A stretch of 64,000 nt of DNA from Candidatus Hadarchaeota archaeon. Lineage in GTDB: Archaea; Hadarchaeota; Hadarchaeia; Hadarchaeales; Hadarchaeaceae. A program made the position numbers and the translations under genes. The stretch spans positions 889,239 to 953,238 of the forward strand of contig CAZETV010000001.1 of assembly GCA_964514965.1 (NCBI GenBank). The letters run 5' to 3'. How positions within the stretch are numbered: the stretch's first letter is position 1; each line of letters starts with the position of its first letter. Of the stretch, positions 10,601 to 49,876 are shown in pieces. A model generated the notes under the pieces. It searched no databases. It saw only the letters and a program-made list of their open reading frames with translations, and had not been told where the DNA came from.

Positions 10601-10730
10601 ATCTAAATCCATCTGAGTTAAATTTCCATTTCTAGGGAATAAGATTTTTTGCAGTGAGATGAAAATTTGTCAAAATCTTAATTATCTTAACATTCTTCAC
10701 GTAATTTTGGGGGCATGTTTAATGCTTTTT

Positions 10731-13730: not shown

Positions 13731-14542
13731 ATAGCCTCTGGCAAATTTTTAATTTGATTGTAGTTGAAAACTGGGCCATCTTGACAAACATAGATGTTGT
13801 TGATTTGGCAATGCCCGCATTTTCCTACTCCACATTTCATCTTGCGCTCCAATGATATCCAGATGTTTTCATCAGGAACTTTGCGATTTTTCAGTTCCCT
13901 GATGACAAAGCGATACATGACTGGTGGGCCGACAATGGCCGCTTGGGTTTTTCTAGGATCGAACTGAATATGGGGGAAAAGGTTGGTGATGACCCCTACG
14001 TTGCCCTGCCATGTTTCGTCTCCGACATCAACCGTTACATGATACTCGACATCATCTCTTTCTTCCCAGCTATTCAACTCCTCTTTGAAAAGAAGTTCCT
14101 GTGGTCTCCTCGAACCGTAGAGGATGTAGACTTTTCCATAATCTTCTCTGGAATTTAAAACGGTCCAGATGAAAGAACGAAGGGGGGCCAGCCCAAGCCC
14201 TCCTGCTATGAAGAGTATGTCTTTTCCCTTGAAATACTTAAGTTCAAACCCTTTACCGAAAGGACCTCGAATTCCAATTTTATCTCCTGATTTCCTGCTG
14301 TGCAGAGCTCTGGTGACATTCCCAATCGCCCGTACACATAGTTGAAATGTCGGTAAGCTGGAGGGAGCGGACGAGATGGAGATGGGAGCCTCTCCAACGC
14401 CAAAAACCGATACCTCCACAAATTGTCCTGGCTGATAGTTGAGATTTTTTCCTGACAGAAGCTCGATTTCAAACAAACGTTCCGTTTTGGTAAGTTGTTC
14501 TATTTTGTTTATTCTTGCTATCTCGGGCGCATAGATCGTCAT
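13727..14542 (-). CDS. hydG: Hydrogenase gamma subunit (FAD/NAD(P)-binding with 2Fe-2S)
   Basis: 271 aa ferredoxin-NADP-reductase-like fold with C-terminal Cys cluster (CGVGKCGHCQ). Confidence 0.75.
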   Translation of the reverse strand: MTIYAPEIARINKIEQLTKTERLFEIELLSGKNLNYQPGQFVEVSVFGVGEAPISISSAPSSLPTFQLCVRAIGNVTRALHSRKSGDKIGIRGPFGKGFELKYFKGKDILFIAGGLGLAPLRSFIWTVLNSREDYGKVYILYGSRRPQELLFKEELNSWEERDDVEYHVTVDVGDETWQGNVGVITNLFPHIQFDPRKTQAAIVGPPVMYRFVIRELKNRKVPDENIWISLERKMKCGVGKCGHCQINNIYVCQDGPVFNYNQIKNLPEAI

Positions 14543-15633: not shown

Positions 15634-15657
15634 CTTTATCAGGCTTATTTAATTAAT

Positions 15658-15672
15658 TATCGTATCGATAAT
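15658..15672. promoter_or_regulatory. Inverted repeat TTATCG-N3-CGATAA upstream of the hydrogenase operon
   Basis: Perfect 6-bp half-sites separated by 3 nt, about 25-40 bp upstream of the hydB start in an AT-rich intergenic region; a candidate operator or promoter element. Confidence 0.2.
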
Positions 15673-15847
15673 TTCTTGTTGAATCGCAATTCATGTTTAA
15701 TATTCCCCCGATAGAGAAATTTTTGTCCATGTTAAACCTTTTCGTTCTTTAATTAAGCAGCTCCAGCATTTGAAGTGCAAGTTAGTTTGTAATAGGCGTC
15801 GCGAAAGGAGTTGCCTTTCTTTTTCGAATTTAAGAGTGCAGATAGAA

Positions 15848-16202: not shown

Positions 16203-16877
16203 TCATTTGAAAATCTCACTTTTTTTGCCAATTTCCTTTACGATTTTTCCATCATTGATCAGATAAGTTCGGTTACATATTTTCATTAAATCTAAATCAT
16301 GTCCTGCCACTACCATCGTGTGGTGTTTTTTAAGTTCTTTTAAAAGTTTCATAAACTCTTTTTTTATCCAAGGGTCGAGAGCCAATGTTGGCTCATCAAG
16401 AACCAAAATCTCAGGCTTCATGGAGAGTACGGTTGCTATTGCGACTCTTTTCTTTTCCCCGTAGCTTAAGTGATGCGAGCTTCGGTTTTCTAACCTTTCA
16501 AGACCCACAGCTTTTAGTGCTTTTCTAACTCTCCTTTTTACTTCCCATTCACTGAGCCCCATATTTACTGGCCCAAACGCGACATCTTCGAAAACCGTCG
16601 GCATGAACATTTGGTCATCTGGATTTTGGAACACAAGCCCCACTTTGCTTCTGACTTCCCTTGTTTTTTTGCGTAAATCCATCCCGATAACGCGTACACG
16701 ACCTCTTTGTGGCTGTAGGATGCCGTTTAAGTGAAGAAGAAGAGTAGATTTTCCTGAGCCGTTGGGGCCTATTAAGCATATGCTCTCCTCTCTTTCGATA
16801 TCTAGGTTAATGCCATGTAACGCTTTCGTACCATCAGGATAGGTGTAGTGCAGATTTTTTATTTCAATAGCTTTCAT
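16203..16877 (-). CDS. cbiO: ECF/CbiO-type ABC transporter ATPase (cobalt/nickel)
   Basis: Walker A (GPNGSGKST), ABC signature (LSYGEKKR) and Walker B (LVLDEP). Confidence 0.8.
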   Translation of the reverse strand: MKAIEIKNLHYTYPDGTKALHGINLDIEREESICLIGPNGSGKSTLLLHLNGILQPQRGRVRVIGMDLRKKTREVRSKVGLVFQNPDDQMFMPTVFEDVAFGPVNMGLSEWEVKRRVRKALKAVGLERLENRSSHHLSYGEKKRVAIATVLSMKPEILVLDEPTLALDPWIKKEFMKLLKELKKHHTMVVAGHDLDLMKICNRTYLINDGKIVKEIGKKSEIFK

Positions 16878-17674
16878 ACCACCACTAATATTAGTATTAG
16901 AAGTAAGAAAAAGCTAGAGAAGAAGAAGGTATCCGATCTCTTGAATTCAAGTTTGTGTGTTAGCTTAATTTCCCCATTGAACCCTCTGGATCGCATTGCA
17001 GTATAAATGCGCTCTCCTCTTTCATAGCTTTTTGCGAACAATGTTCCAATCATGTATCCAAAGAGTTTTACATTTTGTAATCTGCTAAGACTAGGTGCCC
17101 TTGCATCGCGTGCCCTGCGCATTCGCTCGAACTCATCTATAGCGATGAAAATAAAGCGGTACATAAAAGAGAGAATCATTACGAAGATTTTTGGCAGTTT
17201 CAGTCTTTGAAATCCGTTTAGGAGTTTCGGAAACGGGGTTGTTGAAGTAAGAGCGATCATGGCAAGCACACAAAGCCACGATTTTACAAGCACGTTGAGA
17301 AAAATCAACAGGGCTGAGTGGGTTATTCTAAAAATGCCAATATTGTATGATCCAGCTGCGTCACCACCGCCTAAGAACGGCAACCCTATAGCAACGAGCA
17401 GCACAAATGGAACTATCACCGAGGATCTCTTCAGGATAAATCTAAGCGGAACTCGTGAGATTAGGATAATCGAGAAGACTAGTGCCCCGTAAAAGGCGAA
17501 TTTCGGGGCCTGAGTTATTGGAGTGAAAATTACGAAGAAAAGGAAGGAAAAAAGCGCGATTATTTTCACTCTTGGGTCTAAAACATGTATTGAACTATGC
17601 AAATTACTATGCTGGTCTAGAAAATGATGCTTCATATGCTGTTTCAGCGTCTCCGTTTTAAGATTGTACCCCAA
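16874..17674 (-). CDS. cbiQ: Cobalt/nickel ECF transporter transmembrane component CbiQ
   Basis: Multi-TM 266 aa protein translationally coupled to cbiO and cbiN. Confidence 0.7.
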   Translation of the reverse strand: MGYNLKTETLKQHMKHHFLDQHSNLHSSIHVLDPRVKIIALFSFLFFVIFTPITQAPKFAFYGALVFSIILISRVPLRFILKRSSVIVPFVLLVAIGLPFLGGGDAAGSYNIGIFRITHSALLIFLNVLVKSWLCVLAMIALTSTTPFPKLLNGFQRLKLPKIFVMILSFMYRFIFIAIDEFERMRRARDARAPSLSRLQNVKLFGYMIGTLFAKSYERGERIYTAMRSRGFNGEIKLTHKLEFKRSDTFFFSSFFLLLILILVVV

Positions 17675-17937
17675 CCCAGAGTTATACCGATAATGATAAA
17701 CACTCCGACTAGACCCGCTAGCGATGTGGCAAGTGCTTTATTTTCAATGCCGGGGATGGCATAGTCAGGCATCGGAGAGTGCATGGCTTCTTGTCCCTCA
17801 GCTTTCTCTGCGAATCCTTGATCCTCTGCAACTCGTTCGAGACCATCTGGCTCGGAGGAGGCGAAAAGCGATAGCACACATGCCATAGAGATCGCGATGA
17901 CAAGTCCGGCGATCCACCATTTTTCTTTGAGTTTCAT
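17644..17937 (-). CDS. cbiN: Cobalt/nickel transport protein CbiN-like small membrane protein
   Basis: 97 aa with two TM helices, located between cbiM and cbiQ. Confidence 0.55.
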   Translation of the reverse strand: MKLKEKWWIAGLVIAISMACVLSLFASSEPDGLERVAEDQGFAEKAEGQEAMHSPMPDYAIPGIENKALATSLAGLVGVFIIIGITLGWGTILKRRR

Positions 17938-17945
17938 TTTTTCAC

Positions 17946-18581
17946 CTAGATTTTTGGTAGCTTCAGCAAGTCTGGCCGCGTCTTTAGGACGAAGCTAATT
18001 ACCGAAATGGTGATGGCGGCCTCGATGATGCCGATTATTACGTGGATTCCTACCATTGCCGGCAGAGCTATCCCAAGAGGCGAAGTTCCTGAAGCTGCTA
18101 ACTCAAATGCGCATGCCGCCGACGCGAGCACCACAGCGATCCAAGCAGCGACGCCAGCTCCAATAATCATGCCTCTGTCCCCTTTCACAGCTTTTTTAAC
18201 ACCCTGGTAGATGAAATAGCCAAGGATGGTGCCAATAAGCCCCATGTTGATGATGTTCGCGCCCATCGTAGTTATCCCTCCATCTTGGAAGAATATTGCT
18301 TGTACACCAAAGATTGACCCCATTACAATCGATCCAGCCAGCGGGCCGACAAAAACAGCGATGAGTACTCCGCCGAGCATATGTCCGCTGGTGCCGCCAG
18401 CTACTGGCACGTTTAACATTTGTGCTGCGAAAATGAATGCTGCTAGCACGCCTAGTAGTGGAACGTGCCTATCTCCAAGTTTTTTATTAGTCCTCCAAAC
18501 TGCGACGACCAGAATCAGCATAGCGACTACCCACAATGGTGCCCATACCGCAACGCTTAGAAATCCATCTGGTATGTGCAT
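17946..18581 (-). CDS. cbiM: Cobalt/nickel ECF transporter substrate-capture component CbiM/NikM
   Basis: Start set to ATG at 18581 giving the N-terminus MHIPDGFLS; the ORF-track start at 18680 would abut the nikR start. Confidence 0.8.
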   Translation of the reverse strand: MHIPDGFLSVAVWAPLWVVAMLILVVAVWRTNKKLGDRHVPLLGVLAAFIFAAQMLNVPVAGGTSGHMLGGVLIAVFVGPLAGSIVMGSIFGVQAIFFQDGGITTMGANIINMGLIGTILGYFIYQGVKKAVKGDRGMIIGAGVAAWIAVVLASAACAFELAASGTSPLGIALPAMVGIHVIIGIIEAAITISVISFVLKTRPDLLKLPKI

Positions 18582-18597
18582 AATGGCCCCATCTGGG

Positions 18598-18627
18598 AGT
18601 AATACTTTTTGGTATAAAAATATTACT
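18598..18627. promoter_or_regulatory. Candidate NikR operator: AGTAATA-N16-TATTACT
   Basis: Perfect 7-bp inverted repeat with 16-bp spacer, in the 97-bp divergent intergenic region between cbiM (start 18581) and nikR (start 18679); the spacer contains a TATA-like GGTATAAAAATA. Confidence 0.45.
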
Positions 18628-18678
18628 GTCATAGATAACTTGAAAAACACTTGGCAACGAAGTTTGCAGGGAGTTGGC

Positions 18679-19083
18679 ATGCCGAAAAAGATAACGCGAG
18701 TGAGCTTGACGTTGCCTCAAGATTTGTTGGATGAGCTCGATTGCTCTCTTAAAGCTCAAGGTTATACAAGTCGTTCGGAGGCGATCCGTGATGCTTTACG
18801 AGATTTTTTGGCGAGCTACAAGTGGCGCAAGGAGCTTAAGGGCGAACGTATCGGGGTCGTAATACTAGTGTACGAGCACGATGTCCGAGGGCTGATTGAC
18901 GCACTCATGGATATCCAGCACGTGAGTTCGAGTATAATAAGCGCAGTCCAGCATTTGCATGTCGACGCCAAAAACTGCTTGGAAACACTGATTGTCAAGG
19001 GCCCCTCAGAGGAGATCCGCAAGCTTGTCGATCGCTTGGGCGCCCTGCGAGGCGTCAAACAGGTCAAGCTGGTGGTTGTTTGA
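18679..19083 (+). CDS. nikR: Nickel-responsive regulator NikR
   Basis: 134 aa; N-terminal ribbon-helix-helix (KITRVSLTLPQDLLDELD...GYTSRSEAIRDALRDFL) plus C-terminal ACT-like metal-binding domain with His/Cys (EHD...HVD..C). Start taken at ATG 18679, not the 285-aa ORF-track extension. Confidence 0.8.
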   Translation: MPKKITRVSLTLPQDLLDELDCSLKAQGYTSRSEAIRDALRDFLASYKWRKELKGERIGVVILVYEHDVRGLIDALMDIQHVSSSIISAVQHLHVDAKNCLETLIVKGPSEEIRKLVDRLGALRGVKQVKLVVV

Positions 19084-30706: not shown

Positions 30707-30997
30707 TTATTTTTCGGTTTTTGCACTTTTAGCTATTTTTTTAAGCTCTTTCGCCCTAGAAGGGGTTATAAGTTTTCGTTTTTCTAGATCTTCGATGCAT
30801 TTCAATGCATATCCACACCAGGTGACACATGAAGGCGTTGCCTCTCTATGCAACATTCGCCCACAATTATAACATTTTACTTCGGTCTCGTAGCCCAAGA
30901 ATTCTACTTCTTCACCGCAGGCTGGGCAAGTTCGCACTGTTATTTTTGGCTCCACGAGTTCCTTAGCACCCGGACATCTCTTCAGCATTTTTCCCAC
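30707..30997 (-). CDS. Cys-rich zinc-ribbon-like small protein (96 aa), unknown function
   Basis: Eight Cys in CxxC-type pairs (CPACGEE, KCYNCG, SCVTWCGYALKC) and a basic C-terminal tail; sits 133 bp upstream of cdhA on the same strand. Confidence 0.4.
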   Translation of the reverse strand: MGKMLKRCPGAKELVEPKITVRTCPACGEEVEFLGYETEVKCYNCGRMLHREATPSCVTWCGYALKCIEDLEKRKLITPSRAKELKKIAKSAKTEK

Positions 30998-31952: not shown

Positions 31953-32681
31953 TTATTTTCTGAATTTTTGTAGTTTTTTTAGCAGCTCCTTGTCACCTTC
32001 ATAGTCTCCAGCGCAAGTCGCGATTATGCCATCTACAAGACCATCCAATTTCGCTGCGTATTCTTCAACACGATCCATAGTCGTTGTGCTTGGCCACCCG
32101 ATTATCTTTAAAATTTCCTTATTTTTGGGGGTTCCTACAAGGAAGTAAGAGTACAAGGGTTTGTTTAGACGTTTACACTCTTCAGCTATTCGCTCCAGTA
32201 TGGGGAAGGACTTATCTTCAAGTCTCATGAAACATATGAAATCCCATGCACCCCCCACTCGGGCAATACTTTCTTCCGCGGATCGGCGTGCTGTAATCAA
32301 GCAGCCTAACTTTAGATCTTTTATATGCACCGTTGTGCGTAAGAAATTTCGGGCTTCCTCGGAGGATTTTAACATTTTTATGGGCTCTCCGTGCTTGGGG
32401 ATGTCGCCCATAGAGAGCACGATTCCGTCAAGACCTATAGCATCTGCAGCTAGAGCCAGGCCCCCGGCTTCAACCGGGCCCTTATAGTGTAATATGAAGA
32501 TGGGTATCACCATTTTGTCTGGGTATTTAGTTTTGAGGATGCAGCCCACAACCGTCCCGCTGGGTGCCGGCATGCCTGCGGCGCTATCCGTGACGTTCCA
32601 TCCATCAACCAAATCATGAGTTTCTTCGGCAAGTTTCAGAAAATCGCGCGTTGGGACAAACTCGTGTAATATCCTCATCAC
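31953..32681 (-). CDS. MetF-like methylene-tetrahydrofolate/H4MPT reductase family protein (short form)
   Basis: Segments EFVPTRD, VTDSAAG and IVLSMGD align by eye with E. coli MetF segments EFFPPRT, VTYGANS and IVALRGD; only 242 aa, shorter than canonical MetF. Confidence 0.5.
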   Translation of the reverse strand: MMRILHEFVPTRDFLKLAEETHDLVDGWNVTDSAAGMPAPSGTVVGCILKTKYPDKMVIPIFILHYKGPVEAGGLALAADAIGLDGIVLSMGDIPKHGEPIKMLKSSEEARNFLRTTVHIKDLKLGCLITARRSAEESIARVGGAWDFICFMRLEDKSFPILERIAEECKRLNKPLYSYFLVGTPKNKEILKIIGWPSTTTMDRVEEYAAKLDGLVDGIIATCAGDYEGDKELLKKLQKFRK

Positions 32682-32951: not shown

Positions 32952-33722
32952 ATGATGGCTAAAAGAAAAATCCTAAAAATCGACCTCAGAAAACGCAAAA
33001 AATCCGAAGAGGAGGATCTCCTAGCTGTTGACAAGCTTATTAACATCTTCGTTAACGGGGAGTATTTCGTCACCCTCATGGCAAGTCCAAGAAATATTCG
33101 GGAATTGGCGATCGGTCACTTGCTGGGGCAGGGCATCATTAGTACGCTGGAGGATATCGAGCATGTGAGCATAAGGGGAAAAAACGTCAACCTGAGGACA
33201 AAAGCTGAAATTCAACTTGGAGCCACCAAATTCCCGAAGGTAATCCCGACCGCTTGTGGTGCATCGGAGGACATTATTGAACTTCTAGGTAAATCGGGTG
33301 TACTGAAACTCAAGGTGAAATTTAGTGCAGAAAATATTGGGGGTGCGTTTAAATCACTTTACTCTGCGTCTAAGATTTTTAAAAAAAGCGGGGGCACCCA
33401 CGCAGCGGCTTTGTTCGCGTGGAATGGAAAAATGAAATTTTGCATAGAGGATGTCGGGAGGCATAACGCGGTAGACAAGGTCATCGGGAGAGGGCTGATT
33501 GAGGGCGTGAATTTTACAAGGAGCTTTATGATCTCGACGGGTAGGTTATCGGCGGATATGGTGATCAAGTGTGCGAGAGCCGGGATACCGCTCGCTGCAT
33601 CAAAAGCAGCCCCTCTTGAATCAGGCCTCCTAGCGGCTGAGATGAGCGGCTTGACGCTTGTCGGTTTCGTTAGGGGGAGCCGAATGAACGTGTACACGCG
33701 CCCTGAACGGGTGAAATTTTAG
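32952..33722 (+). CDS. fdhD: Formate dehydrogenase accessory sulfurtransferase FdhD
   Basis: 256 aa FdhD-like sequence (TACGASE...GGTHAAALF...GRHNAVDKVIG). Confidence 0.8.
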   Translation: MMAKRKILKIDLRKRKKSEEEDLLAVDKLINIFVNGEYFVTLMASPRNIRELAIGHLLGQGIISTLEDIEHVSIRGKNVNLRTKAEIQLGATKFPKVIPTACGASEDIIELLGKSGVLKLKVKFSAENIGGAFKSLYSASKIFKKSGGTHAAALFAWNGKMKFCIEDVGRHNAVDKVIGRGLIEGVNFTRSFMISTGRLSADMVIKCARAGIPLAASKAAPLESGLLAAEMSGLTLVGFVRGSRMNVYTRPERVKF

Positions 33723-34343
33723 ATGGGAAAGCTCGGCATTTTGGTTTTAGCGGGCGGGGGCAGCAAGAGGTTTGGTAGAGAGAAGCCCTTTTTCGAGATA
33801 AACGGGAAACCCATGATTCAGCACGTAGTAGGAAAGATCTCCAAACTATCCAAAGAATTAGTGATATCGTGTAGGTCTAGCCGAGAGAAACTGGCGAGAA
33901 TGTTTCCTAGCGCAAAAGTCATTGTGGACAAGGATGAGAGGAAAGGAGCATTAACGGGCCTAGTGAGCGTGCTTCCTGAGATCAGATCTGAGTACACGGC
34001 TTTGGTAACGTGCGACTGCCCGAAAATCAGGCTGGAAGTCATTGAGTTGTTATTTGAGAAAGCGAAAAACCATAGCGGTGCAGTCGCCAGATGGCCGAAT
34101 GGTTATGTGGAACCACTTCAAGCCGTTTACGAAACGGAAAAACTGCTAAAGGCCGTGAACGAGGTGTGGAAAAGGGGGGAAATGAGGTTAATGGAGGTCC
34201 TAAATATAGTCCCGGATATCGTTTACGTATCGACGGAGGAACTAAGGGGGATTGATCCAAAATTGGAATCATTCCTGAATGTGAACTCACCTGAGGACAT
34301 CGAGCTTCTGTCGGCGGGAAATCTAAATAGAGGATATAGGTAG
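33723..34343 (+). CDS. mobA: Molybdenum cofactor guanylyltransferase MobA
   Basis: N-terminal LAGGGSKRFG nucleotide-binding motif, 206 aa; start immediately after the fdhD stop. Confidence 0.75.
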   Translation: MGKLGILVLAGGGSKRFGREKPFFEINGKPMIQHVVGKISKLSKELVISCRSSREKLARMFPSAKVIVDKDERKGALTGLVSVLPEIRSEYTALVTCDCPKIRLEVIELLFEKAKNHSGAVARWPNGYVEPLQAVYETEKLLKAVNEVWKRGEMRLMEVLNIVPDIVYVSTEELRGIDPKLESFLNVNSPEDIELLSAGNLNRGYR

Positions 34344-40959: not shown

Positions 40960-41030
40960 AGAATCCCAAGCGTAAATTTTTGGTCTGAATTTATAAATGC
41001 GAGAGTGCCAATAAATTTGGAGGTTTGGTC

Positions 41031-41858
41031 ATGGTTCAAAGGGTGAGAGTAGGATTAGTTAAGATGGGCAACCTCGGCACTTCTGCCATGTTAGATCTGA
41101 TGCTCGATGAGCGGGCGGAAAGGGAGGACATCGACTTTAGGGTTGTGGCATCTGGGCCGAAAATAACCGAGGAGGACTGTAAAGGGGTTTCTGAAAAAAT
41201 TCTTGATTTCAATCCCGAACTAATCATAGCAATAAGCCCAAATCCTTCCGTTCCGGGACCTTCGAAGGCCAGAGAAATCCTCAAGAAATCTGGCAAGCCT
41301 TGCATAATCATCGGCGATGCCCCAGGTACTAAAATCGCCGGAGAACTTGAGAAGACAGGTTTTGGCTACATATTCGTCGAGGCGGATTCCATGCTTGGCG
41401 CAAGAATGGAATTTCTTGACCCTATCGAGATGTCGCTCTTTAATGCGGATGTAATCAAGGTTCTTTCAGTAACCGGCGCTTTCCGAGTTGTTTATGAGGA
41501 GGTTGATAAAGCAATCGAGGGCGTGAAGTCTAGCAAGCCCTATTTGCCGAAGATAATTATCGACCGTGATAAAGCTGTAAACGCCGCCGAATTTGAAAAT
41601 CCCTATGCGCGTGCGAAGGCCATGGCAGCTTTTGAAATAGCGAAAAAAGTTGCAGACGTAAGCGTTGAGGGCTGTTTTAGGGTCAAGGAGAAAGAGAGGT
41701 ACATACCGATTGTGGCGGCGGCGCATGAGATGATGAGGACGGCCGCAAAGTTATGTGACGAAGCTCGCGAAATAGAAAAAAGCGAGGACTCTGTGCTAAG
41801 GAGGCCGCATGGAAGAAAAGGCGAACTCCTCTCGAAACGAAAGCTTATGGGAATCTAG
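41031..41858 (+). CDS. mtd: F420-dependent methylene-tetrahydromethanopterin dehydrogenase
   Basis: N-terminus MVQRVRVGLVKMGNLGTSAMLDLMLDERAERED matches the Mtd family; GGAGGT Shine-Dalgarno 8 nt upstream of ATG 41031 (ORF track began at an upstream TTG). Confidence 0.85.
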   Translation: MVQRVRVGLVKMGNLGTSAMLDLMLDERAEREDIDFRVVASGPKITEEDCKGVSEKILDFNPELIIAISPNPSVPGPSKAREILKKSGKPCIIIGDAPGTKIAGELEKTGFGYIFVEADSMLGARMEFLDPIEMSLFNADVIKVLSVTGAFRVVYEEVDKAIEGVKSSKPYLPKIIIDRDKAVNAAEFENPYARAKAMAAFEIAKKVADVSVEGCFRVKEKERYIPIVAAAHEMMRTAAKLCDEAREIEKSEDSVLRRPHGRKGELLSKRKLMGI

Positions 41859-41860: not shown

Positions 41861-42967
41861 TTGGCACTCCTCGGTACTAAGTGCGGGGATTCTTGTACGC
41901 TCATTAATAGAGGGGCACTAAAATTGTTTGGAATAGGGATGAAAGGAAAACCGCTGGAAGGTGACATGGTAGAAACGGCGGATAACATTATTTTCGATGT
42001 TAGAGGACATACCCATCCGCCCGGAAGGGTCATTGCTTATCCCAAGTACGTGTCAGATTTGAGAGGGAACTTGAGGCGTGGCGAAACCACTTTTCGGAGG
42101 GTCCGCACCTTTCAAGATTTGCATGATGCAATTGAGCAGTTGGATTCAAAGTATTTGATTTACGATCCTGTTTTCGGCGAAAAATTATGCGAAGTTTCGG
42201 AGGAAGGTATAAACTATCACTATAGACCCAGCGACTGTCTGTCAGAGCTGCGACGTAAAAAGGAGCTGGACAAAGTCGAAAATGAGGCACTTTCCCTGCT
42301 TCAGCTCATGAAAACGGAAGCCAAAGTTCCGTGGAACAAGCTAGGACTTTCTGGGTCAATACTTACGAAGCTCTACACAATCTCGTCTGACATTGATCCC
42401 GTTGTTTATGGATTGAAGAACTGCTGCCGAGTATACGCGAGCATAATGCAGTTGTTGGAGGATGGGGAAATAGAATTAGAGAAGGTGAAGGAGGAAGAGA
42501 AGAAGGAAGATTATAAAAAAGAAATTCGTTCCGGAGAGTTGGATAAATCTGTAGTCTCTTATGAAGATTACATGCGCGTGGAAATGAGAAAAACCTTTGT
42601 GGGGCGGTTTGGCGGTCGGAAGTACTCCATAAAATTCGTCAAGGATTGGGGTGAGGTAGAGAGTACCTATGGGGTGGTTAAGTGTACTCCAAGAGGAAGT
42701 GTTAGAATAAAGGCCAAAATCGAGGACGATTCGGATGCAATCTTCATGCCAGGCGCCTATAAGATTTGTAACGTCAAGCTCTTGGAGGGGCCAGATTTTG
42801 TGCCAGTGGAGATTTTATCAGTTCACTTAAGGTTCTGTGAACAGGCAAAAAGGGGCGAAACTGTTATCGCGCGGGGAAAGCTTGAATCTGTACAGCGGAG
42901 AAGTGGGGACGAATATTATAGGCTCGTCCTTGGGAACGAGGCTTCAGACTACATGATTTTAGTTTGA
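41861..42967 (+). CDS. Uncharacterized protein with central Pol-beta-superfamily nucleotidyltransferase motif
   Basis: 368-aa ORF starting 3 nt after the mtd stop; contains GS-x9-DxD signature (LGLSGSILTKLYTISSDIDPVVYG) about 150 aa from the N-terminus, flanked by unrecognised N- and C-terminal domains. Confidence 0.4.
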   Translation: MALLGTKCGDSCTLINRGALKLFGIGMKGKPLEGDMVETADNIIFDVRGHTHPPGRVIAYPKYVSDLRGNLRRGETTFRRVRTFQDLHDAIEQLDSKYLIYDPVFGEKLCEVSEEGINYHYRPSDCLSELRRKKELDKVENEALSLLQLMKTEAKVPWNKLGLSGSILTKLYTISSDIDPVVYGLKNCCRVYASIMQLLEDGEIELEKVKEEEKKEDYKKEIRSGELDKSVVSYEDYMRVEMRKTFVGRFGGRKYSIKFVKDWGEVESTYGVVKCTPRGSVRIKAKIEDDSDAIFMPGAYKICNVKLLEGPDFVPVEILSVHLRFCEQAKRGETVIARGKLESVQRRSGDEYYRLVLGNEASDYMILV

Positions 42968-43004: not shown

Positions 43005-43877
43005 TCAATGAGTTAAAACGTGATCGATTATCTTTTTGGTTATACTTACTTTTGTCGTGGATTGGAGACCTTTCCACCCAGGAATGGCGTTGACCTCAGT
43101 AATGAAGAACTCGTCATCCCGTTCAACGATGTCCACCCCGGCGTACTCACATCTCAAGATTTCTGCCGACTTTATCGATGCTTCTTCTAGCTCTCCACGT
43201 AATTCACATGGCTCGACTCTCGCTCCCTTTGAAAAGTTAGTCTTCCAGCTTTCGCCGACTCTCTTCATTGCCGCTATAACTTCATCCCCGATAATGAAAG
43301 CCCTTATATCCTCGTTGCGATGAGGAATGAACTCTTGGACGTAATACACATACCTTCCAAATTCAAGGGCCGTAAAAACTCTATATGCTAGGTCCCGATC
43401 ACTCACTCGTACCATCCCCGCACCCAAAGAGCCGAAGAGGGGCTTGACTATCACGTCCTTGAACTCCTCGAAGGCCTTCATGGCATCGTCATGCTTTTCG
43501 GTAACGATAGTCTTGGGGGTCGGGATTCCCGCATCTTCCAACAAAGAGCACGTATAGAACTTATCCGCACATCGCTCTATGGCGATTGCAGGGTTCAGTA
43601 CCTTTACTCCCAAATTCTCCAGCCTGTGAAGCGTATCCATTCTGAATATCAGCTGTTCCGCTGATCCTTTCGGCACCCATCTGACAATTAATGAGTCGAA
43701 CTCATCAAGATCGTGACCACAACATGAGACGCGTGGCTTTCCGCTCAACTTTGCGACTAGGTAAGAAAGAGGAAAGGTAAAACAGCTGATTTTTCTGCTT
43801 TCTATTTCTTCCCTCAACTGCTCAACATTCCAGTCATTTTTACCTGAGGTAAAAATTCCGATTTTCTTCACACGCAT
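43005..43877 (-). CDS. mptN: RimK-like ATP-grasp glutamate ligase, probably tetrahydromethanopterin:alpha-L-glutamate ligase (MptN) or CofF-like
   Basis: 290 aa RimK-type ATP-grasp (VIVKPLFGSLGAGM, EVNAIPGWKG); last gene of the fwd-ftr-mch operon. Confidence 0.55.
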   Translation of the reverse strand: MRVKKIGIFTSGKNDWNVEQLREEIESRKISCFTFPLSYLVAKLSGKPRVSCCGHDLDEFDSLIVRWVPKGSAEQLIFRMDTLHRLENLGVKVLNPAIAIERCADKFYTCSLLEDAGIPTPKTIVTEKHDDAMKAFEEFKDVIVKPLFGSLGAGMVRVSDRDLAYRVFTALEFGRYVYYVQEFIPHRNEDIRAFIIGDEVIAAMKRVGESWKTNFSKGARVEPCELRGELEEASIKSAEILRCEYAGVDIVERDDEFFITEVNAIPGWKGLQSTTKVSITKKIIDHVLTH

Positions 43878-44809
43878 GCACCCAGTGATTTCGCCAGCAC
43901 TTCCTCGTCAATGCTTCCGGCATGAAAAACTCTTCCGGTCCTCAGGTTGTTTATCGTTACTTCGGCGGGGGAGAAAAGTTTTGGATCGATCTTGAAGAAG
44001 TCCCTATCATATTTTTCGAAGAGTTCAAGGAATGGCAGGCCGTAGTCCTTGGAGGCGCGTGAGGGAATTTCATCGATCACCTTCTCAACCTCAGAGTCGT
44101 CAGCATCCACGAAGTACATCGTCCTCCCACCGTAGAGCACACAGTCGTTGGTTTTCCCCATCGCTTCTAGATCGTTTTTGGTCACTGGCGCTACGGGAGC
44201 ACTTCCGCTCCCGCAGATTATCTCGCCTATATCGAACCCGACCTCATGTAGCTTGTGCACGCCGGTTTCCACAATTCTCGCTGATATCTGGATGCTCCCA
44301 ACAATGCTTGCAGTCGGGGCAGCCAAGATGTAGAGACTATCGGGCTTCACCTTGCATTTTTGGGCGATGAAATCCGCTACCTTTTCGTTTGGTATTTTTC
44401 TAGTCTCGAGCGTGATGACCGCTTTCTCACACCTATCTTCATATTTCAATTCTCGGAACAGCTTTTCCTCCACCCTCGCCAGCGCCCTCGCGGGACCCGA
44501 ACCCATCGCGAAGTAATCTTCAACTTTTATCGCCCACCCAGCAAATTGAGAAGCCATGCATGATATCGCGGGATGGTCCACGTTCACATGGACATAGGGC
44601 CTTTTCTCCATGCAAAGACTAACGCCGCCAAGACCCCCTAGACACGCCTCTGAAAAAAGTTTGCCAGCTTTAAGGCTCCCCTGCACCTTGATTCCAGAGT
44701 CGATCACTACTGCCCCATTTTTTAGTTTGAGGACTTTGACCCCCAGTTCTTCCTCACTTTGAGTCATCGCGTCTGCTATTTTTGAAGCTCTTTCGTTCAC
44801 GCTTATCAT
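43868..44809 (-). CDS. mch: Methenyl-tetrahydromethanopterin cyclohydrolase
   Basis: 313 aa with the Mch family N-terminus (ISVNERASKIADAM) and conserved core. Confidence 0.85.
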   Translation of the reverse strand: MISVNERASKIADAMTQSEEELGVKVLKLKNGAVVIDSGIKVQGSLKAGKLFSEACLGGLGGVSLCMEKRPYVHVNVDHPAISCMASQFAGWAIKVEDYFAMGSGPARALARVEEKLFRELKYEDRCEKAVITLETRKIPNEKVADFIAQKCKVKPDSLYILAAPTASIVGSIQISARIVETGVHKLHEVGFDIGEIICGSGSAPVAPVTKNDLEAMGKTNDCVLYGGRTMYFVDADDSEVEKVIDEIPSRASKDYGLPFLELFEKYDRDFFKIDPKLFSPAEVTINNLRTGRVFHAGSIDEEVLAKSLGACV

Positions 44810-45627
44810 GTCGCGCCTCCTTTCCAGATCAGTATCTCCCCCTTCCCTAGGGCGGCAATATCTCCGTTATACCTATCGTAGAAACCCTCGATGTGTTCTT
44901 TTTTGACAGGTAAATCATATTTTTCCAGTCTTTTTAGGAAGGCTCTGATGAAAGTCGGTTTGTAGGTGCAACTATATCTGAAGGTCGGCAGTAGCTTCGG
45001 GGGATTGAAGGCTATGATGGTTCCCCTATCCATCCCGGCTCCCGCTTTCTCCCCGATATCGCCGGAACAGACTATTGACCCACCTGTCATGAGTGCGCCG
45101 GTTAAGTTTCCTAGTTTGCCTTTGATGACGATTGCGCCCCTTCTCATCAGTTCTCCGACCTCGCGTCCGGCATCGCCTTCAATTATAATCATTCCGCCCT
45201 TCATTCCGACTTTAGAACCCCGGTAACCCGAACCAACGAGGTTTCGGGCGTTCCCTCTGACCCTTATCAGCCCCCCTTTCATCTCGGCCCCGAGCCAATC
45301 CCCAGCGTTTCCGTGAACGAGTATCTCTCCTCCTTGCATCTCCCGACCAAGGTGCATTCCAGCACTCCCCTCGATTACCAACTTGCCTTTGCTCATCCTT
45401 GCCCCAATATGCTTGACCGCGCTGACATCGCCAGTGATAACTATCTTCTCAGTTCCATCCGATTCCTGTTCGATATTGAAGATATCAGTCAATCTTTTCC
45501 TTCGGTTTCCCCACAAAAGCTCGAGACTTTTTAGCTCCGCCACAGACTTACCAGAAAATACATCGGGTGAGATGCATTCGGCCTCAACCGGCACCTTAAA
45601 TTTGACTTTAGGTTTGAGGATGATCAT
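44806..45627 (-). CDS. fwdC: Formylmethanofuran dehydrogenase subunit C
   Basis: 273 aa beta-helix protein with repeated G-x-x-G-x-x-M/L-x-x-G repeats (GNAGDWLGAEMKGG, GDAGREVGELMRRG). Confidence 0.8.
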   Translation of the reverse strand: MIILKPKVKFKVPVEAECISPDVFSGKSVAELKSLELLWGNRRKRLTDIFNIEQESDGTEKIVITGDVSAVKHIGARMSKGKLVIEGSAGMHLGREMQGGEILVHGNAGDWLGAEMKGGLIRVRGNARNLVGSGYRGSKVGMKGGMIIIEGDAGREVGELMRRGAIVIKGKLGNLTGALMTGGSIVCSGDIGEKAGAGMDRGTIIAFNPPKLLPTFRYSCTYKPTFIRAFLKRLEKYDLPVKKEHIEGFYDRYNGDIAALGKGEILIWKGGAT

Positions 45628-46520
45628 CGGTTGCCCTCGAAGAGTTTGTGGAGGTAGACCAAGTGTTTGCCCAGCTTGCCCCCATAGTTTCCGGCAGTTA
45701 TGAGCTTTATCCCGTCCACACTACAGGCTTCTTCGATTCCCGCCTTCGTGGCTTTTTTCACGCTTTCTCCGTCCAATCCGTTTATCACTATTTCTAGGAC
45801 GGAGTTGACATCCTGCGGTATCTTGCTTTCCACTACAGATCTCAGGGTCGGACAATATGCGGTATTCGTCGAAGCCCTTAGGAACTTGTACTTCGACCCG
45901 ACCTTGCTACCGCTCCTTACTACACCGCCGGGAAATGGAGTTATCACATTTTTGATTCCTTTTATAGCTTCGACTGCTTTCTCCGCGGCCTCAAGCACGC
46001 AGTCGGCATCTCTCCCCAAGATGAGGAAGTTACCTCCTCCCACGGCTTTTCGGACTTTGAACTTTTCCTCAACTAAAAATTCACCCTCCATGGCGGGGAT
46101 TCTCCAAAACCTCCTGCCGTCGATCCGCTTGGCAATTTGATAGCCGTCCCCGAAAAATCTCAACTTCCCACCAATGTTTATTTCCTTCTCCCCTTCCAAG
46201 TTGTTGAAACAGGCCGTTGTGGGACAAGTCATTATGCATTGACCAACCCTCCGCATGAGCTGGTCCTCGAGGGTCTTTTCGGACATGGCTAAAACTAGAA
46301 TGTTCGCCCCCGGTCTTCCATCTGGGGTTTCTTTGACTCTCACAAGATTCTCTATCCCAGCTTCAGCCCCGCACGCTATGACTGAAGTGGCAAATCCCGT
46401 GGTGGTGTTCGTAGCGTGCAAAGCCCATTTTTTGTTTTTCGCCGTTATCAACAAGCGTGCCGCTACCATATCGAAGGCTTCGGCAAATGTATCTTCTATT
46501 TCCACTCCGTTTATCTGCAT
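45624..46520 (-). CDS. ftr: Formylmethanofuran--tetrahydromethanopterin N-formyltransferase
   Basis: 298 aa with the Ftr N-terminus (MQINGVEIEDTFAEAFDMVAARLLITA) and length typical of Ftr. Confidence 0.9.
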   Translation of the reverse strand: MQINGVEIEDTFAEAFDMVAARLLITAKNKKWALHATNTTTGFATSVIACGAEAGIENLVRVKETPDGRPGANILVLAMSEKTLEDQLMRRVGQCIMTCPTTACFNNLEGEKEINIGGKLRFFGDGYQIAKRIDGRRFWRIPAMEGEFLVEEKFKVRKAVGGGNFLILGRDADCVLEAAEKAVEAIKGIKNVITPFPGGVVRSGSKVGSKYKFLRASTNTAYCPTLRSVVESKIPQDVNSVLEIVINGLDGESVKKATKAGIEEACSVDGIKLITAGNYGGKLGKHLVYLHKLFEGNR

Positions 46521-48118
46521 GGTATCATCTCTCCTCTGGGCAGGTACTCGTCCTGCACGGGGTAGTTTTCTAAGGCGACCGTATAGTACTTAGCGAAATC
46601 TTCCCTCATCTCATCGGTCACCTCGCCTCCAGCGTTTACCCAGTAAGTTCTCCCTTGGGGTGATTCAACTATTTTCCCATCCTTCAACACAATTTTCCCA
46701 TCCTTGATCACGTATTTAGCCCTCGAGAAAGAGCGTTTTATATCGTTCTCTTTGAACTCGTAAATTGCTACATCGGCATCGGCTCCCACACCTAGATGTC
46801 CTTTTTGCGTGAGTCCCAAGAGCTTGGCAGCGGCTGCCCTCGTTATTATGGCAATTTCGAACAGCGAATATTCCCTGTCTATCCCTCCGAGACCAGTTCT
46901 AGACGAAGCGGCGCGATGAACGGACTGAAGCATCTGATCGCGCGCCTGCTTGTTCATCAACCAAGAGATGACTTCTGGGTAGTGGTAGAATGGGCCCCCG
47001 TTGGGGTGATCGGTGGTCATGAAGAACTTCCACGGATCTTTAACTAGCAGAGCCATCTCCAACCCGATTGCCCACTGAACGGCATTGACGGGGCTCTTAG
47101 CTTTGTAAACATGCGGGACTATGCCAGCGCCCTCTTCCATCTCCACATCTGCATTGTACCACTTGTTCCCGGTCATCTTGTAAAGGCTGTGTTGCATTGG
47201 ACCGTCGGCCGTCATTGTGGTAGCGTCGTCGAATATGACTTGCCCCATATCACAAGTCACGTTTTCGCGCTGGTTTATCCGCTTCGCGAGCTCGGCTGCC
47301 CCCGAGGCTAATTTCGCCCAACTGTCCCCCGCGTAAGAGTTAAACTGGATGTGAGTGATGTGAATCCTTCCTTTGACTGCATTTATCGATTCTGCGGTCG
47401 TCTCGAAATTCCCGGGTGTCCCAAGGTTGTTGCAGTGAACGTGAATGGGGTGGGGGAGTTTCAACTCTTCGTTGACCTTCGCTAGACCAGTGAGTATCTC
47501 TCGGGGGGTTACTTCGTAATTATCGACCCTGTCATTGATGCTTTTTACGTTCCTGCCCCACTTCCAGTTTTCCACTCCACCTGGATTCACTATTTTTACG
47601 ACGCACCCCCTTGTCGCCTTTAAGAGCCATGCAACGAAGTTCTTGAGCTTTTCAAAGTCCTTCTCCTTGACGTACCTCAAGACGAAGTGGTTATTGCCCA
47701 TGAGTGTGTAACACCCCTTGTCCACGATTGGGATGTCGTTTAGCTCCTCGTGTGTGTGCCTCGCCCCTAGTGGAGGTACAGCAGCTTCCATCAGGGTCGT
47801 GTAACCAAGCTTCACGTACCTATACCCTGTCACAAACGTTGTGGGGACAGTGTATCCGACCCCGCCTCTCGTGATTTCTGTTTTCGAAACGGGGTCCTTT
47901 CTGTGGTCTTCAGGTCTGAACAACCTGCCGAGGTTAACCTTAGAACCAGCGATGTGGGTGTGGATCTCCACGCCTCCAGGTAGGACGATCAGCCCAGAGG
48001 CATCTATTTCCTTTCCATCAGCTTCCTCGACTATTTTCCCGTTTTTGATGAACAGATCTTTCTTTTCTCCGTTTATCCCGTTCAAGGGGTCGTAGATGGT
48101 GCCATTCTTGATAATCAA
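46511..48118 (-). CDS. fwdA: Formylmethanofuran dehydrogenase subunit A (amidohydrolase)
   Basis: 535 aa amidohydrolase fold with metal-binding HxH (GGVEIHTHIAG) and downstream His/Asp ligands. Confidence 0.85.
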   Translation of the reverse strand: MIIKNGTIYDPLNGINGEKKDLFIKNGKIVEEADGKEIDASGLIVLPGGVEIHTHIAGSKVNLGRLFRPEDHRKDPVSKTEITRGGVGYTVPTTFVTGYRYVKLGYTTLMEAAVPPLGARHTHEELNDIPIVDKGCYTLMGNNHFVLRYVKEKDFEKLKNFVAWLLKATRGCVVKIVNPGGVENWKWGRNVKSINDRVDNYEVTPREILTGLAKVNEELKLPHPIHVHCNNLGTPGNFETTAESINAVKGRIHITHIQFNSYAGDSWAKLASGAAELAKRINQRENVTCDMGQVIFDDATTMTADGPMQHSLYKMTGNKWYNADVEMEEGAGIVPHVYKAKSPVNAVQWAIGLEMALLVKDPWKFFMTTDHPNGGPFYHYPEVISWLMNKQARDQMLQSVHRAASSRTGLGGIDREYSLFEIAIITRAAAAKLLGLTQKGHLGVGADADVAIYEFKENDIKRSFSRAKYVIKDGKIVLKDGKIVESPQGRTYWVNAGGEVTDEMREDFAKYYTVALENYPVQDEYLPRGEMIPCR

Positions 48119-49386
48119 GCTTTCACCTTCTCAATAATTCTTTTCAAAATTTCTCTATCGGGTAAGAACTCCGAATCGATTACTTTTTTGAGCCTTAGGG
48201 GGATTCCGTCCATTCTGTAGGCAGTTCCATCGCACTCTATCCCAGCTATCGCTGAGGGAATTACAATCCTGGCAATTAAGGAAGTAAGGCTGATTTTTGG
48301 ATCGATAACGATTGTTGGGATCGTAGTCAAATGCTTGGAAGCTTGGGCGGGGAAATGCGCAACGGGGTCGGAGGCTATTATGAGAGCGGCATCACATTCT
48401 CCACGAGCCAAGATATCCACAGCAGAAAATTCACCTGGATTGTAAACCGGATAACCTTTGGAGAAATTGACCGCATAAGGGTAGCCAGTGCACCAAGTCA
48501 TCACATCGTTGGCACCAGACACGTTATAGTGGCCCCTCATCGGGATTATGGCGAATTTGGTGTGGTCATTCAAATCCCTGACGAGGCGGAGAGCCGCGTC
48601 GACGTTCATGTGCTTTCCCCCAGTCATCGTAAGACCTAGGCCGAAGAATATCACCCCAAATTTGCAACTCTTCATTTTCTCCGCAAGTTGTTTGATGGTT
48701 TCAGAAGGTACCCCTGCAACATCCCCCACATCATATCCCTTGACCACAGCTCTGAATGCCGAAAGCAACTCGTAGTCTTGGCCGGGCTTAACTTTTACAA
48801 AAAGATTGGCCATCTTCGAGGTCTTCGTTTCTCTCACATCAATGTGCACTATCTCCCGACCTTTCTTTCCACTTTCTGTGTAGAGGCCTCTAGGGGTTAT
48901 CGAGTATCGCGTTGCGTGCTTGATATGGGCCTCCGCTGGGTTACACCCCCAGAAAATCACCAAATCGGCCCTGTTTTTGACTTCCCCTAGTGTACATTTT
49001 GCAGCTCCACAATCTTGGGCTGCTTGAATGGTTGGTCCGTGGCAGACGGAGCTCGTGTTATCAATGGATGCTCCAGTCAATTCGGCGAGCTCGACAGCCA
49101 GTCTCTGGGCGTCGGTTTCGGTAGAGCTCAGGCCGTATATCAATGGAAAATCGGCTTTCTTCAAAATCTCCGCTGTTTTCTCCAAAGTTCTTTCTATTGA
49201 CACTTCAACGAGTTTCCTTTTTTTCTTTATTTGAGGTTTAGCTCTGTCTTTAGCGTGGTTCAGAAATTTACTTTTGGAGAATGCGCAAGCATTTTTAACA
49301 TCGACTACCCTTCCATCTTCCGTTACAACTTCTATATCATCACAAAGACATCCACAAAGAGGACACACGATATTTTTGTAATTCAT
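48115..49386 (-). CDS. fwdB: Formylmethanofuran dehydrogenase subunit B (molybdo/tungstopterin catalytic subunit, Cys-type)
   Basis: N-terminal 4Fe-4S motif CPLCGCLCDD; catalytic Cys-His dipeptide in SSVCHGP (Cys, no in-frame TGA), so not a selenoprotein. Confidence 0.85.
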   Translation of the reverse strand: MNYKNIVCPLCGCLCDDIEVVTEDGRVVDVKNACAFSKSKFLNHAKDRAKPQIKKKRKLVEVSIERTLEKTAEILKKADFPLIYGLSSTETDAQRLAVELAELTGASIDNTSSVCHGPTIQAAQDCGAAKCTLGEVKNRADLVIFWGCNPAEAHIKHATRYSITPRGLYTESGKKGREIVHIDVRETKTSKMANLFVKVKPGQDYELLSAFRAVVKGYDVGDVAGVPSETIKQLAEKMKSCKFGVIFFGLGLTMTGGKHMNVDAALRLVRDLNDHTKFAIIPMRGHYNVSGANDVMTWCTGYPYAVNFSKGYPVYNPGEFSAVDILARGECDAALIIASDPVAHFPAQASKHLTTIPTIVIDPKISLTSLIARIVIPSAIAGIECDGTAYRMDGIPLRLKKVIDSEFLPDREILKRIIEKVKA

Positions 49387-49772
49387 TTAATCCCTTTTAT
49401 TTGTGTTATGGCATTTACTATTTTCAATATATCTTTGTCCGTCGCTAAAATCTCCGCTTCAACGCCTTTAGAATCTGGCATCCCGGTTCCTTGAGTATCC
49501 GCGCTTATCACCATATTTGCCCAAGGCCCGTAGGGCATGAAAGCGATTCCGTGGTCTATTCTCGACTCTTTACACCTAACGACGGTTGAACCGAATTTGG
49601 TGCTAACTTCTACATTTTCACCCTCTTTAGCACCGATTTCTTTCATATCGTTTTCATTCATCATGACCATGGCGACATTTTTAGAATATTCCTCAGAAGT
49701 TTTGCTAATTTCTAGACTTGTCCCCTGTTCTACCGTCCTTCCACTGATTAAAATCACTTTCATGTGATTCAT
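49383..49772 (-). CDS. fwdD: Formylmethanofuran dehydrogenase subunit D
   Basis: 129 aa molybdopterin-dinucleotide-binding-domain-like small subunit, first gene of the operon. Confidence 0.75.
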   Translation of the reverse strand: MNHMKVILISGRTVEQGTSLEISKTSEEYSKNVAMVMMNENDMKEIGAKEGENVEVSTKFGSTVVRCKESRIDHGIAFMPYGPWANMVISADTQGTGMPDSKGVEAEILATDKDILKIVNAITQIKGIK

Positions 49773-49876
49773 CTAGCTCTTTTCTAGTTCTAATATTAAA
49801 GCGGGACATTTTAACTTTTTGTAAAAAATATTTGTGTAGATATGGAAAAAGTTGTAGGCAGAAGATTTAAACAAAA

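Follow-up and report, generated by a model that had tools for sequence, protein, structure and literature searches.

A Hadesarchaeal fwdDBA-ftr-fwdC-mch operon predicted to encode a redox-competent formylmethanofuran dehydrogenase core, with an Fhc-type element in FwdC and no adjacent ferredoxin subunits

Formylmethanofuran dehydrogenase (Fwd) stands at the entry to, or the exit from, the methyl branch of the archaeal Wood-Ljungdahl pathway, and structural work is actively addressing how it is wired to its electron donors. The current report concerns an operon for the core of this enzyme in a stretch of 64,000 nucleotides (the window) of a Candidatus Hadarchaeota archaeon, drawn from contig CAZETV010000001.1 (positions 889,239 to 953,238) of assembly GCA_964514965.1; its FwdB protein shares 94% identity with the FwdB of Hadesarchaea archaeon DG-33 and 89% with the one from another Hadesarchaea metagenome-assembled genome (MAG). 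Seven overlapping open reading frames (ORFs) on the minus strand, from 49772 down to 43005, correspond to FwdD, FwdB, FwdA, Ftr, FwdC, Mch and an MptN-like ligase of the RimK family (Table 1). They are thus predicted to specify the FwdABCD core, the next two C1 enzymes of the tetrahydromethanopterin (H4MPT) pathway (Ftr and Mch) and a cofactor-tailoring glutamate ligase. The successive genes overlap by 4, 4, 10, 4, 4 and 10 nt, so that all seven are likely to be translationally coupled within one transcript, and the single tight operon described in the original prediction for this DNA is borne out.

Table 1. Coordinates of the operon, its sequence motifs and other features of the 64-kb window
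Feature	Position	Strand	Remarks
fwdD, molybdopterin-dinucleotide-binding cap domain	49383..49772	-	129 aa; ATG at residue 4 may be the true start
fwdB, W/Mo-bis-pterin catalytic subunit	48115..49386	-	423 aa; TIGR03129 582.5 bits, cut-off 327.8
FwdB N-terminal [4Fe-4S] motif, CPLCGCLCDD...NAC	49285..49365	-	Cys8, 11, 15, 34, plus extra Cys13 (49348-49350)
FwdB active-site motif SSVCHGP	49033..49053	-	Cys115-His116, equivalent to M. wolfeii Cys118-His119
fwdA, binuclear-metal amidohydrolase condensing formate with methanofuran	46511..48118	-	535 aa; TTG start
ftr, formylmethanofuran:H4MPT formyltransferase	45624..46520	-	298 aa; relatively FhcD-like
fwdC, beta-helix scaffold subunit	44806..45627	-	273 aa; TIGR03122 290.8 bits, cut-off 130.65
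FwdC C-terminal Fhc-type helix-loop-helix, LLPTF...RYNGD	44860..44994	-	residues 212-256; candidate Ftr docking element
mch, methenyl-H4MPT cyclohydrolase	43868..44809	-	313 aa; TIGR03120 435, cut-off 228.8; Pfam MCH 432 bits
RimK-family alpha-L-glutamate ligase, MptN-like	43005..43877	-	290 aa
Divergent intergenic region upstream of fwdD	49773..49876	.	104 bp; AT-rich
Spacer 3' of ligase stop codon	42968..43004	-	37 nt; three T4-T5 runs; convergent gene beyond
C1 supercluster	21813-57104		about 35 kb
mtd	41025..41858	+	NF002162 411.8 bits, cut-off 297
ORF between mtd and operon end	41861-42967	+	368 aa; 9 Cys
fdhD	32952-33722	+	TIGR00129 208.5 bits, cut-off 140.9
mobA (MobA-like)	33723-34343	+	NF001457 132.1, under the cut-off of 164
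ORF flanking cooC-like gene	31953-32681	-	242 aa
Zinc-ribbon-like ORF on other flank of cooC-like gene	30707-30997	-	96 aa; 8 Cys
[NiFe] hydrogenase, group 3b-type	11653-15633		four subunits; sulfhydrogenase-like
Maturation protease with fused C-terminal domain	10731-11669	-	protease at residues 1-155; fused domain of about 150 aa
CbiO/CbiQ(/CbiN) transporter with NikR-domain gene	16203-19083		NikR-domain gene at 18226-19083

The gene assignments that are not documented in Table 1 are drawn from family models and from matches to structures in the Protein Data Bank (PDB). FwdA scores 807 bits against TIGR03121 (cut-off 392.75) and matches 5T5I_A at E=1.7e-186, and FwdD passes the Pfam model Molydop_binding (PF01568) at 65.4 bits and matches 2KI8 (E=2.3e-26) and 5T5I_D (E=6.6e-23); its score of 109.8 against the NCBIfam exception model for FwdD, which is a narrow "tungsten FwdD" model, lies under the cut-off of 175. 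Ftr passes NF002554 (457.7 bits, cut-off 297) as well as a second NCBIfam model (442.4, cut-off 292.6), and it matches Ftr chains in the PDB at E=1e-101 to 1e-98 and FhcD, the formyltransferase subunit of the bacterial formyltransferase/hydrolase complex (Fhc), at 3e-94. The ligase passes the RimK family model (219.8 bits, cut-off 143.4), and MptN is by far its best match, with a score of 292.8 for MptN_Meth (NF040720; under the equivalog cut-off of 350) against 181.7 for LysX and 101.6 for CofF; an alternative start 6 nt downstream, adopted in the gene call of a Logan contig, would shorten it to 288 aa. The spacer upstream of fwdD is read as a promoter, with TTTAATATTA at 49800-49791 (19-28 nt 5' of the fwdD ATG) as its putative archaeal TATA box; at the other end of the operon, the T-rich spacer that parts the convergent genes may act as an oligo-T terminator.

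The dehydrogenase core appears to be intact. FwdB aligns over its full length with FwdB of Methanothermobacter wolfeii (5T5I_B, E=2.6e-142) and only at E=2.8e-18 with FhcB (6S6Y_B). In the former alignment, Cys8, 11, 15 and 34 match the cluster cysteines, Cys115-His116 match the catalytic pair and Arg284 (in MRGH) matches Arg288, and none of these residues varies across an alignment that adds 17 relatives, so that the retention of the Fe-S motif and of the SSVCHGP site, which had been read from the translation, is upheld against the solved structure, with no loss of ligands seen. Cys118, His119 and Arg288 (M. wolfeii numbering) are listed as lost in FhcB (Hemmann et al. 2019, PMC6926001). In FwdA, the motifs HTHIAG, KIVNPGG, HVHCNNLG, THIQF and TTDHPNGG align with the FwdA chain of 9SW6, and the ligands of the binuclear metal site (HxH, carboxy-Lys, His, His and Asp) are kept; the pterin cap is encoded as a separate FwdD. 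Genes for FdhD and a MobA-like protein, both of which are required to make the sulfurated bis-guanine-dinucleotide pterin cofactor, lie about 10 kb from the operon. Because the FwdB cluster and active site, the FwdA motifs, FwdD and the nearby FdhD and MobA genes all point the same way, the assignment of FwdABCD as a real, redox-competent W- or Mo-pterin dehydrogenase core is well supported by sequence, in keeping with the original view of a genuine dehydrogenase, with an Fhc-type hydrolase as a very unlikely alternative.

Two further features of FwdB deserve mention. Its cluster motif takes the form CPxCG-C-LCDD, with an extra and invariant cysteine at position 13. This residue is Thr in 12 of the 14 FwdB proteins encoded with ferredoxin genes just upstream, and Thr is likewise found in the FwdB chains of M. 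wolfeii and 9SFI. Among proteins encoded with no such genes upstream, the counts are 45 Cys, 14 Ser and 2 Thr. The split could be linked to access to the cluster, or it could be purely phylogenetic. Also, many close homologues (P0018, P0021, P0026-P0028, P0030, P0032 and others; 65-69% identical and 559-604 aa long) bear both Molybdopterin and Molydop_binding Pfam domains and are natural FwdB-FwdD fusions, in agreement with an earlier survey (PMC11237513).

Electron-transfer subunits were sought in the window by a six-frame scan for the motif CxxCxxCxxxC and by family scans that covered most larger ORFs. The 64 kb contain five such motifs: CdhA and the beta subunit of the [NiFe] hydrogenase have two each, and DmrX has the fifth. 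No ORF of the window corresponds to FwdG, with its two [4Fe-4S] clusters, or to the polyferredoxin FwdF, and the family scans detected no FwdE/FmdE, FwdH, FrhB, Hdr, FlpD or polyferredoxin. The claim that FwdE, F, G and H are missing in and near the operon is thus sustained for the window; the accompanying idea that their absence is anomalous is not, since none of the sampled loci with ftr between fwdA and fwdC has adjacent ferredoxin genes and since there are published precedents (PMC7325909, PMC9012536). A fwdDBA-ftr-fwdC operon without fwdE/F/G was described in the Hakuba Actinobacteria, where its likeness to Fhc was noted and where FwdB keeps both Cys118 and a complete cluster domain (Merino et al. 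2020, PMC7325909), and FwdFG is absent from all ANME-1, a group of anaerobic methanotrophic archaea (Chadwick et al., PMC9012536). The CO2/formyl-methanofuran couple lies at about -0.53 V, which demands a ferredoxin-type donor and for which H2 or NAD(P)H is insufficient (PMC11656701). Given this ferredoxin-level potential and the lack of a docked FwdG or FwdF, it is simplest to suppose that a soluble ferredoxin operates on the FwdB cluster, and such a ferredoxin is the likeliest, default electron partner rather than a mystery.

The distribution of the operon was assessed at 80 loci from species representatives of the GTDB, centred on FwdB homologues, in which the seven proteins and every ORF with at least two ferredoxin motifs were mapped. 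The order D-B-A-Ftr-C occurs at 15 loci, the window's own contig included, and none of them has adjacent ferredoxin genes; an MptN-like ligase usually follows, and Mch comes before or after. These loci belong to Hadesarchaea (L003), Bathyarchaeia (L005, L006, L008, L010, L011, L019 and L046), Theionarchaea (L017) and three bacterial lineages (Ca. Desulfaltia, L009; Ca. Hakubella, L051; and a Desulfobacteraceae MAG, L060), along with two further contigs (L083, of the Hadarchaeales, and L084). Ferredoxin-like ORFs are found just upstream of fwdB in about 15 of the 80 related loci. Asgard loci have genes for a two-motif ferredoxin of about 90 aa and a three-motif ferredoxin of about 240 aa directly upstream of fwdD, similar pairs exist in loci of the Hydrothermarchaeota, and a Methanocaldococcus locus has a ten-motif polyferredoxin. 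The operon of the window is the Hadesarchaeal member of a known, widespread and biochemically uncharacterised class, fwdDBA-ftr-fwdC(-mch-mptN).

Variations on this layout were encountered at two of the loci. In L060, two ORFs of 490 and 469 aa (12897-15844) are inserted between fwdA and ftr. This gap was considered as the site of an inserted electron-transfer gene and was rejected as such, since the translations read instead as H4MPT-biosynthesis-type proteins; they look like a possible HPPK/GTP-cyclohydrolase-like fusion and an MptH-like pterin-binding protein, in which case L060 would represent a bacterium that has an archaeal-type operon plus cofactor synthesis genes. In L004, an Undinarchaeales MAG, two fwd clusters lie in tandem (1-14800). 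The first has the order Ftr-D-B-A-C, followed by a two-motif (530 aa) and a four-motif (894 aa) iron-sulfur protein, and the second has the order D-B-A-C-Mch with no adjacent ftr and with an Fhc-type helix-loop-helix in its FwdC.

The position of ftr within the operon invites comparison with the fhcBADC gene cluster of Methylorubrum extorquens, in which FhcD binds a helix-loop-helix of FhcC at residues 216-246 (PMC6926001). A resemblance to the fhc layout had been suggested for the window, and it turns out to be closer than was claimed, since fhcBADC has the same B-A-ftr-C order. FwdC of the window aligns with FhcC (6S6Y_C) over residues 18-269, including the segment LLPTF...F(I/V)R...RYxGDxAxLGKGE, and its alignment with M. 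wolfeii FwdC (5T5I_C) ends at residue 219; an AlphaFold2 model (predicted local distance difference test score, 93.7) places two helices, 225-237 and 243-247, between the last strands. Among 60 FwdC proteins from the sampled loci, all 12 that are encoded directly after ftr have a long insert of 41-43 residues between LLPTF and GD (11 as counted by regular expression, 12 by eye). In the 48 others, the spacer is 16-28 residues long and hairpin-like in 46 and long in 2, and short spacers are also what is seen in the D-B-A-C-Mch Bathyarchaeia and at loci with ftr after fwdC. The C-terminal segment of FhcC scores 29-43.5 bits on the twelve post-ftr proteins and no more than 24.6 bits on the others, except for L004_12907 at 37, and the beta-helix core of FhcC does not separate the two types.

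The formyltransferases divide along the same line. The score for FhcD minus that for the Ftr of M. kandleri ranges from +14 to -32 for Ftr proteins encoded in A-Ftr-C operons and from -65 to -114 for those encoded elsewhere, with the exception of the divergent L073, a poor match to both. None of the best 120 FwdC homologues has the length that a fusion with Ftr would require, and a survey of archaeal fusions reported FwdB-D and FmdE fusions and no fusion of Ftr with FwdC (PMC11237513). That gene order, docking element and Ftr type travel together is what would be expected if Ftr sits on FwdC and if Fhc derives from such an operon. The link between the Fhc-type element of FwdC and the A-Ftr-C order is the new feature of the current analysis, and it suggests, but does not prove, the existence of a Fwd-Ftr complex; from these sequences, we put the docking of Ftr on FwdC in a redox-active supercomplex at close to, though somewhat short of, an even chance. 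Fwd/Fhc synteny may already have been discussed by Adam et al. (2019, Nat Microbiol), the likely source on the subject.

A number of observations weigh against such docking or against a direct supply of electrons by a free ferredoxin. The association of gene order with the helix-loop-helix (Fisher p=2.6e-9) ignores kinship between the loci and so overstates their independence, and gene order, helix-loop-helix and FhcD-like Ftr probably share one origin and have spread by descent and transfer; co-inheritance of gene order and docking element is in any case no proof of contact. The second cluster of L004 has its helix-type FwdC without an adjacent ftr, and the Ftr encoded nearby is not FhcD-like, and L066 (Thorarchaeota) has a long FwdC insert in a divergent arrangement. 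Foldseek, tried as a means of telling the Fhc type from the Fwd type, was rejected because the shared beta-helix dominates its matches: 5T5I_C, 8RJA_C and 6S6Y_C all match the FwdC model with template modelling scores of 0.84-0.87 (0.87 for FhcC vs 0.86 for FwdC), and the best E-value belongs to 5T5I_C. The bulk charge of FwdC gives no sign of the basic anchor for polyglutamate that Fhc has. The protein from the window is basic (isoelectric point, 9.6), and those of the operon class range from 5.1 to 9.6, not different from other FwdC; net charge and isoelectric point of FwdC, FwdA, FwdB, FwdD and Ftr were also set aside as proxies for such an anchor, since they do not separate the operon classes. 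Finally, the absence of FwdE, F, G and H applies to the 64-kb window only, so that fwdF or fwdG might lie elsewhere in the genome, and no gene for a soluble ferredoxin partner was identified within the window.

Comparison with known systems places the operon between the dehydrogenases and Fhc in several respects. With the operon of the Hakuba Actinobacteria (PMC7325909) it shares the gene order, the lack of fwdE/F/G, the FwdB cluster and the catalytic Cys, and the Ca. Hakubella locus in our sample has the order B-A-Ftr-C-MptN with a helix-type FwdC; the operon described here, however, belongs to an archaeal host, adds mch and lies beside genes for methanofuran and H4MPT biosynthesis, which were not observed in the genomes of that study. 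The tungsten enzyme of M. wolfeii, FwdABCDFG (PDB 5T5I), has in common with it the FwdB cluster, the Cys-His-Arg site, the FwdD cap, the FwdA binuclear site and the FwdC beta-helix, whereas in the window there is no FwdG or FwdF nearby, ftr, mch and the ligase are inside the operon, Cys13 replaces Thr, and the FwdC helix-loop-helix takes the place of the M. wolfeii beta-hairpin (residues 229-241). The FhcABCD complex of M. extorquens (PDB 6S6Y, PMC6926001) shares the B-A-ftr-C order, which equals the fwdDBA-ftr-fwdC order minus fwdD, as well as the helix-loop-helix of subunit C and the type of formyltransferase. In Fhc, from which formate is released, the cluster domain, the pterin site and FwdD are gone, whereas all of the redox features are kept in the Hadesarchaeal proteins; Fhc also binds polyglutamylated methylofuran tightly.

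Other enzymes share the core. The Fwd of ANME-1 and FwdDBAC of Methanosarcina acetivorans are also four-subunit cores without FwdFG, and they are presumed to use free ferredoxin. The ANME-1-type loci of our sample (L042 and L074) have no ftr after fwdA, although both loci are truncated, and their FwdC type is not linked to Ftr. The enzyme of Ca. Ethanoperedens thermophilum (PDB 8RJA) has a homologous ABCD core (E 1e-136 to 1e-178) that is electronically connected to an F420 reductase, for which there is no gene in the window; it shows that the electron modules attached to an ABCD core are interchangeable.

The best overall explanation for these observations, to which we assign a probability of roughly 0.7, is that the operon is the Hadesarchaeal copy of a conserved class and specifies a redox-competent core together with Ftr, Mch and the ligase. 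On this view the core would be wired directly to ferredoxin, and Ftr, with the lower probability given above, would be docked on FwdC. The FwdABCD complex would have no need for a dedicated FwdF or FwdG. Electrons would pass directly between the single N-terminal [4Fe-4S] cluster of FwdB and a soluble low-potential ferredoxin encoded elsewhere, which could be reduced, for example, by the CODH/ACS (carbon monoxide dehydrogenase and acetyl-CoA synthase) encoded 13 kb away; this enzyme would be the obvious ferredoxin-linked partner in the window, and the NAD(P)-type hydrogenase is not plausible as a direct donor. Ftr would sit on the Fhc-type helix-loop-helix of FwdC, as FhcD does on FhcC, and the formyl-methanofuran that FwdA produces would then be consumed on that particle. 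Whether the flux serves CO2 reduction for acetyl-CoA synthesis or the oxidation of C1 units is a matter that the sequence does not decide. The operon class would then be a redox-active counterpart, and probably an ancestor-like form, of the bacterial fhcBADC formyltransferase/hydrolase, and Fhc would arise from such an operon through loss of FwdD and of the redox sites.

A more elaborate version of this scheme is put forward tentatively, as the less probable side of the balance. It envisages a five-subunit particle, with Ftr on the FwdC of a redox-active Fwd, that would convert CO2 to formyl-H4MPT and would be a living intermediate between Fwd and Fhc, with the ligase possibly lengthening the tail of methanofuran. 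The co-transcribed RimK-type ligase might extend the glutamate tail of methanofuran and not that of H4MPT, and the lengthened tail might act as a swinging arm, by analogy with methylofuran in Fhc. Such a particle, if it exists, would mean that recruitment of the formyltransferase preceded the loss of dehydrogenase function.

Among the alternatives, the one that survives best, though we regard it as unlikely, is a canonical holoenzyme of the methanogen type, in which FwdG and/or FwdF encoded outside the window still wire FwdB, so that the stripped-down look of the operon is deceptive. These genes could lie in the rest of the genome, and FwdB is 55-60% similar, in end-to-end alignment, to FwdB proteins that bind FwdG; but such subunits are encoded directly upstream of fwdD/B in every sampled lineage that has them and are adjacent in none of the A-Ftr-C loci, their absence at the level of the genome has been reported both for the Hakuba Actinobacteria with the same operon (PMC7325909) and for ANME-1 (PMC9012536), and FwdB has Cys at position 13, like most FwdB proteins without upstream ferredoxin genes, rather than the Thr that prevails in those with them. 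Still less probable is a dedicated module of another kind encoded elsewhere, either an FrhB-type F420-reducing subunit, as in 8RJA, or an Hdr-type bifurcating complex. Modules of these kinds exist (PMC11656701), the organism uses F420 as judged from its Mtd, and in the related contig L083 an FrhB-like gene lies 3 kb upstream of fwdD and an FlpD/Fer4 protein is encoded near cdhA, yet the window yielded no member of the FrhB, Hdr or FlpD families and no such gene is conserved beside the operon across the class. A non-redox formyltransferase/hydrolase of the Fhc type, releasing formate and using FwdB as a mere scaffold, would agree with the gene order identical to fhcBADC, the Fhc-type C-terminus of FwdC and the FhcD-like Ftr, but it is highly improbable in view of the presence here of the cluster domain, the equivalents of Cys118, His119 and Arg288 and the FwdD partner that FhcB lacks, the far better match of FwdB to FwdB than to FhcB, and the FdhD and MobA genes nearby.

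The operon that we read as a ferredoxin-served core lies within a C1 supercluster. The CODH/ACS part consists of AcsV, CdhEDCBA (the five subunits CdhABCDE) and a CooC-like ATPase, and the window also encodes an AMP-forming acetyl-CoA synthetase. Methanofuran biosynthesis is represented by MfnA, B, D, E and F and that of H4MPT by beta-RFAP synthase, a pterin-binding MptH-like protein, the dihydromethanopterin reductase DmrX, DUF447 and a CitG-like protein; further members are an ATP-grasp ligase, a HisA/F-like protein, a MetE-like protein and DUF1464. Since mtd is present, the organism is predicted to use F420. No mer was seen in the 64 kb, and in the related Hadarchaeales contig L083 a methylenetetrahydrofolate reductase (MTHFR) gene adjoins cdhA.

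Several neighbouring genes are unusual or lack a family assignment. The Cys-containing ORF between mtd and the operon, which the Logan contig calls as the same gene at 347 aa, has no match in Pfam or NCBIfam, and the cooC-like gene beside cdhA is flanked by a 242-aa ORF without a family match and, on its other side, by a small zinc-ribbon-like ORF; at the equivalent position, L083 encodes MTHFR, DUF5981 and an FlpD/Fer4 protein. Downstream of the [NiFe] hydrogenase, a maturation protease is joined, in an unusual fusion, to a C-terminal domain with a weak match to cyclic-nucleotide-binding/CRP-like models. A metal transporter of the energy-coupling factor type lies beside a NikR-domain gene, whose mechanically called ORF has an implausibly long N-terminal extension, and this unit probably serves nickel uptake for the hydrogenase and CODH.

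The operon type without built-in ferredoxin subunits has already been reported, and the current report adds the Hadesarchaeal example. It indicates that the widespread subsurface Hadesarchaea retain an apparently fully active dehydrogenase core that is devoid of a built-in ferredoxin chain, within a supercluster that also provides for the synthesis of acetyl-CoA and of both C1 carriers. Its value is that of a clean test example for two questions: whether there is a redox-active Fwd-Ftr particle, and whether a four-subunit core can be served directly by free ferredoxin. Should Ftr dock on FwdC, operons of this class would represent the redox-active form from which the Fhc of methylotrophs derived, and they would be candidate cases of substrate channelling during CO2 fixation. 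The joint occurrence of the gene order, the FwdC helix-loop-helix and the FhcD-like Ftr in Hadarchaeales, Bathyarchaeia, Theionarchaea and some bacteria provides a testable evolutionary and mechanistic link between the two enzyme types.

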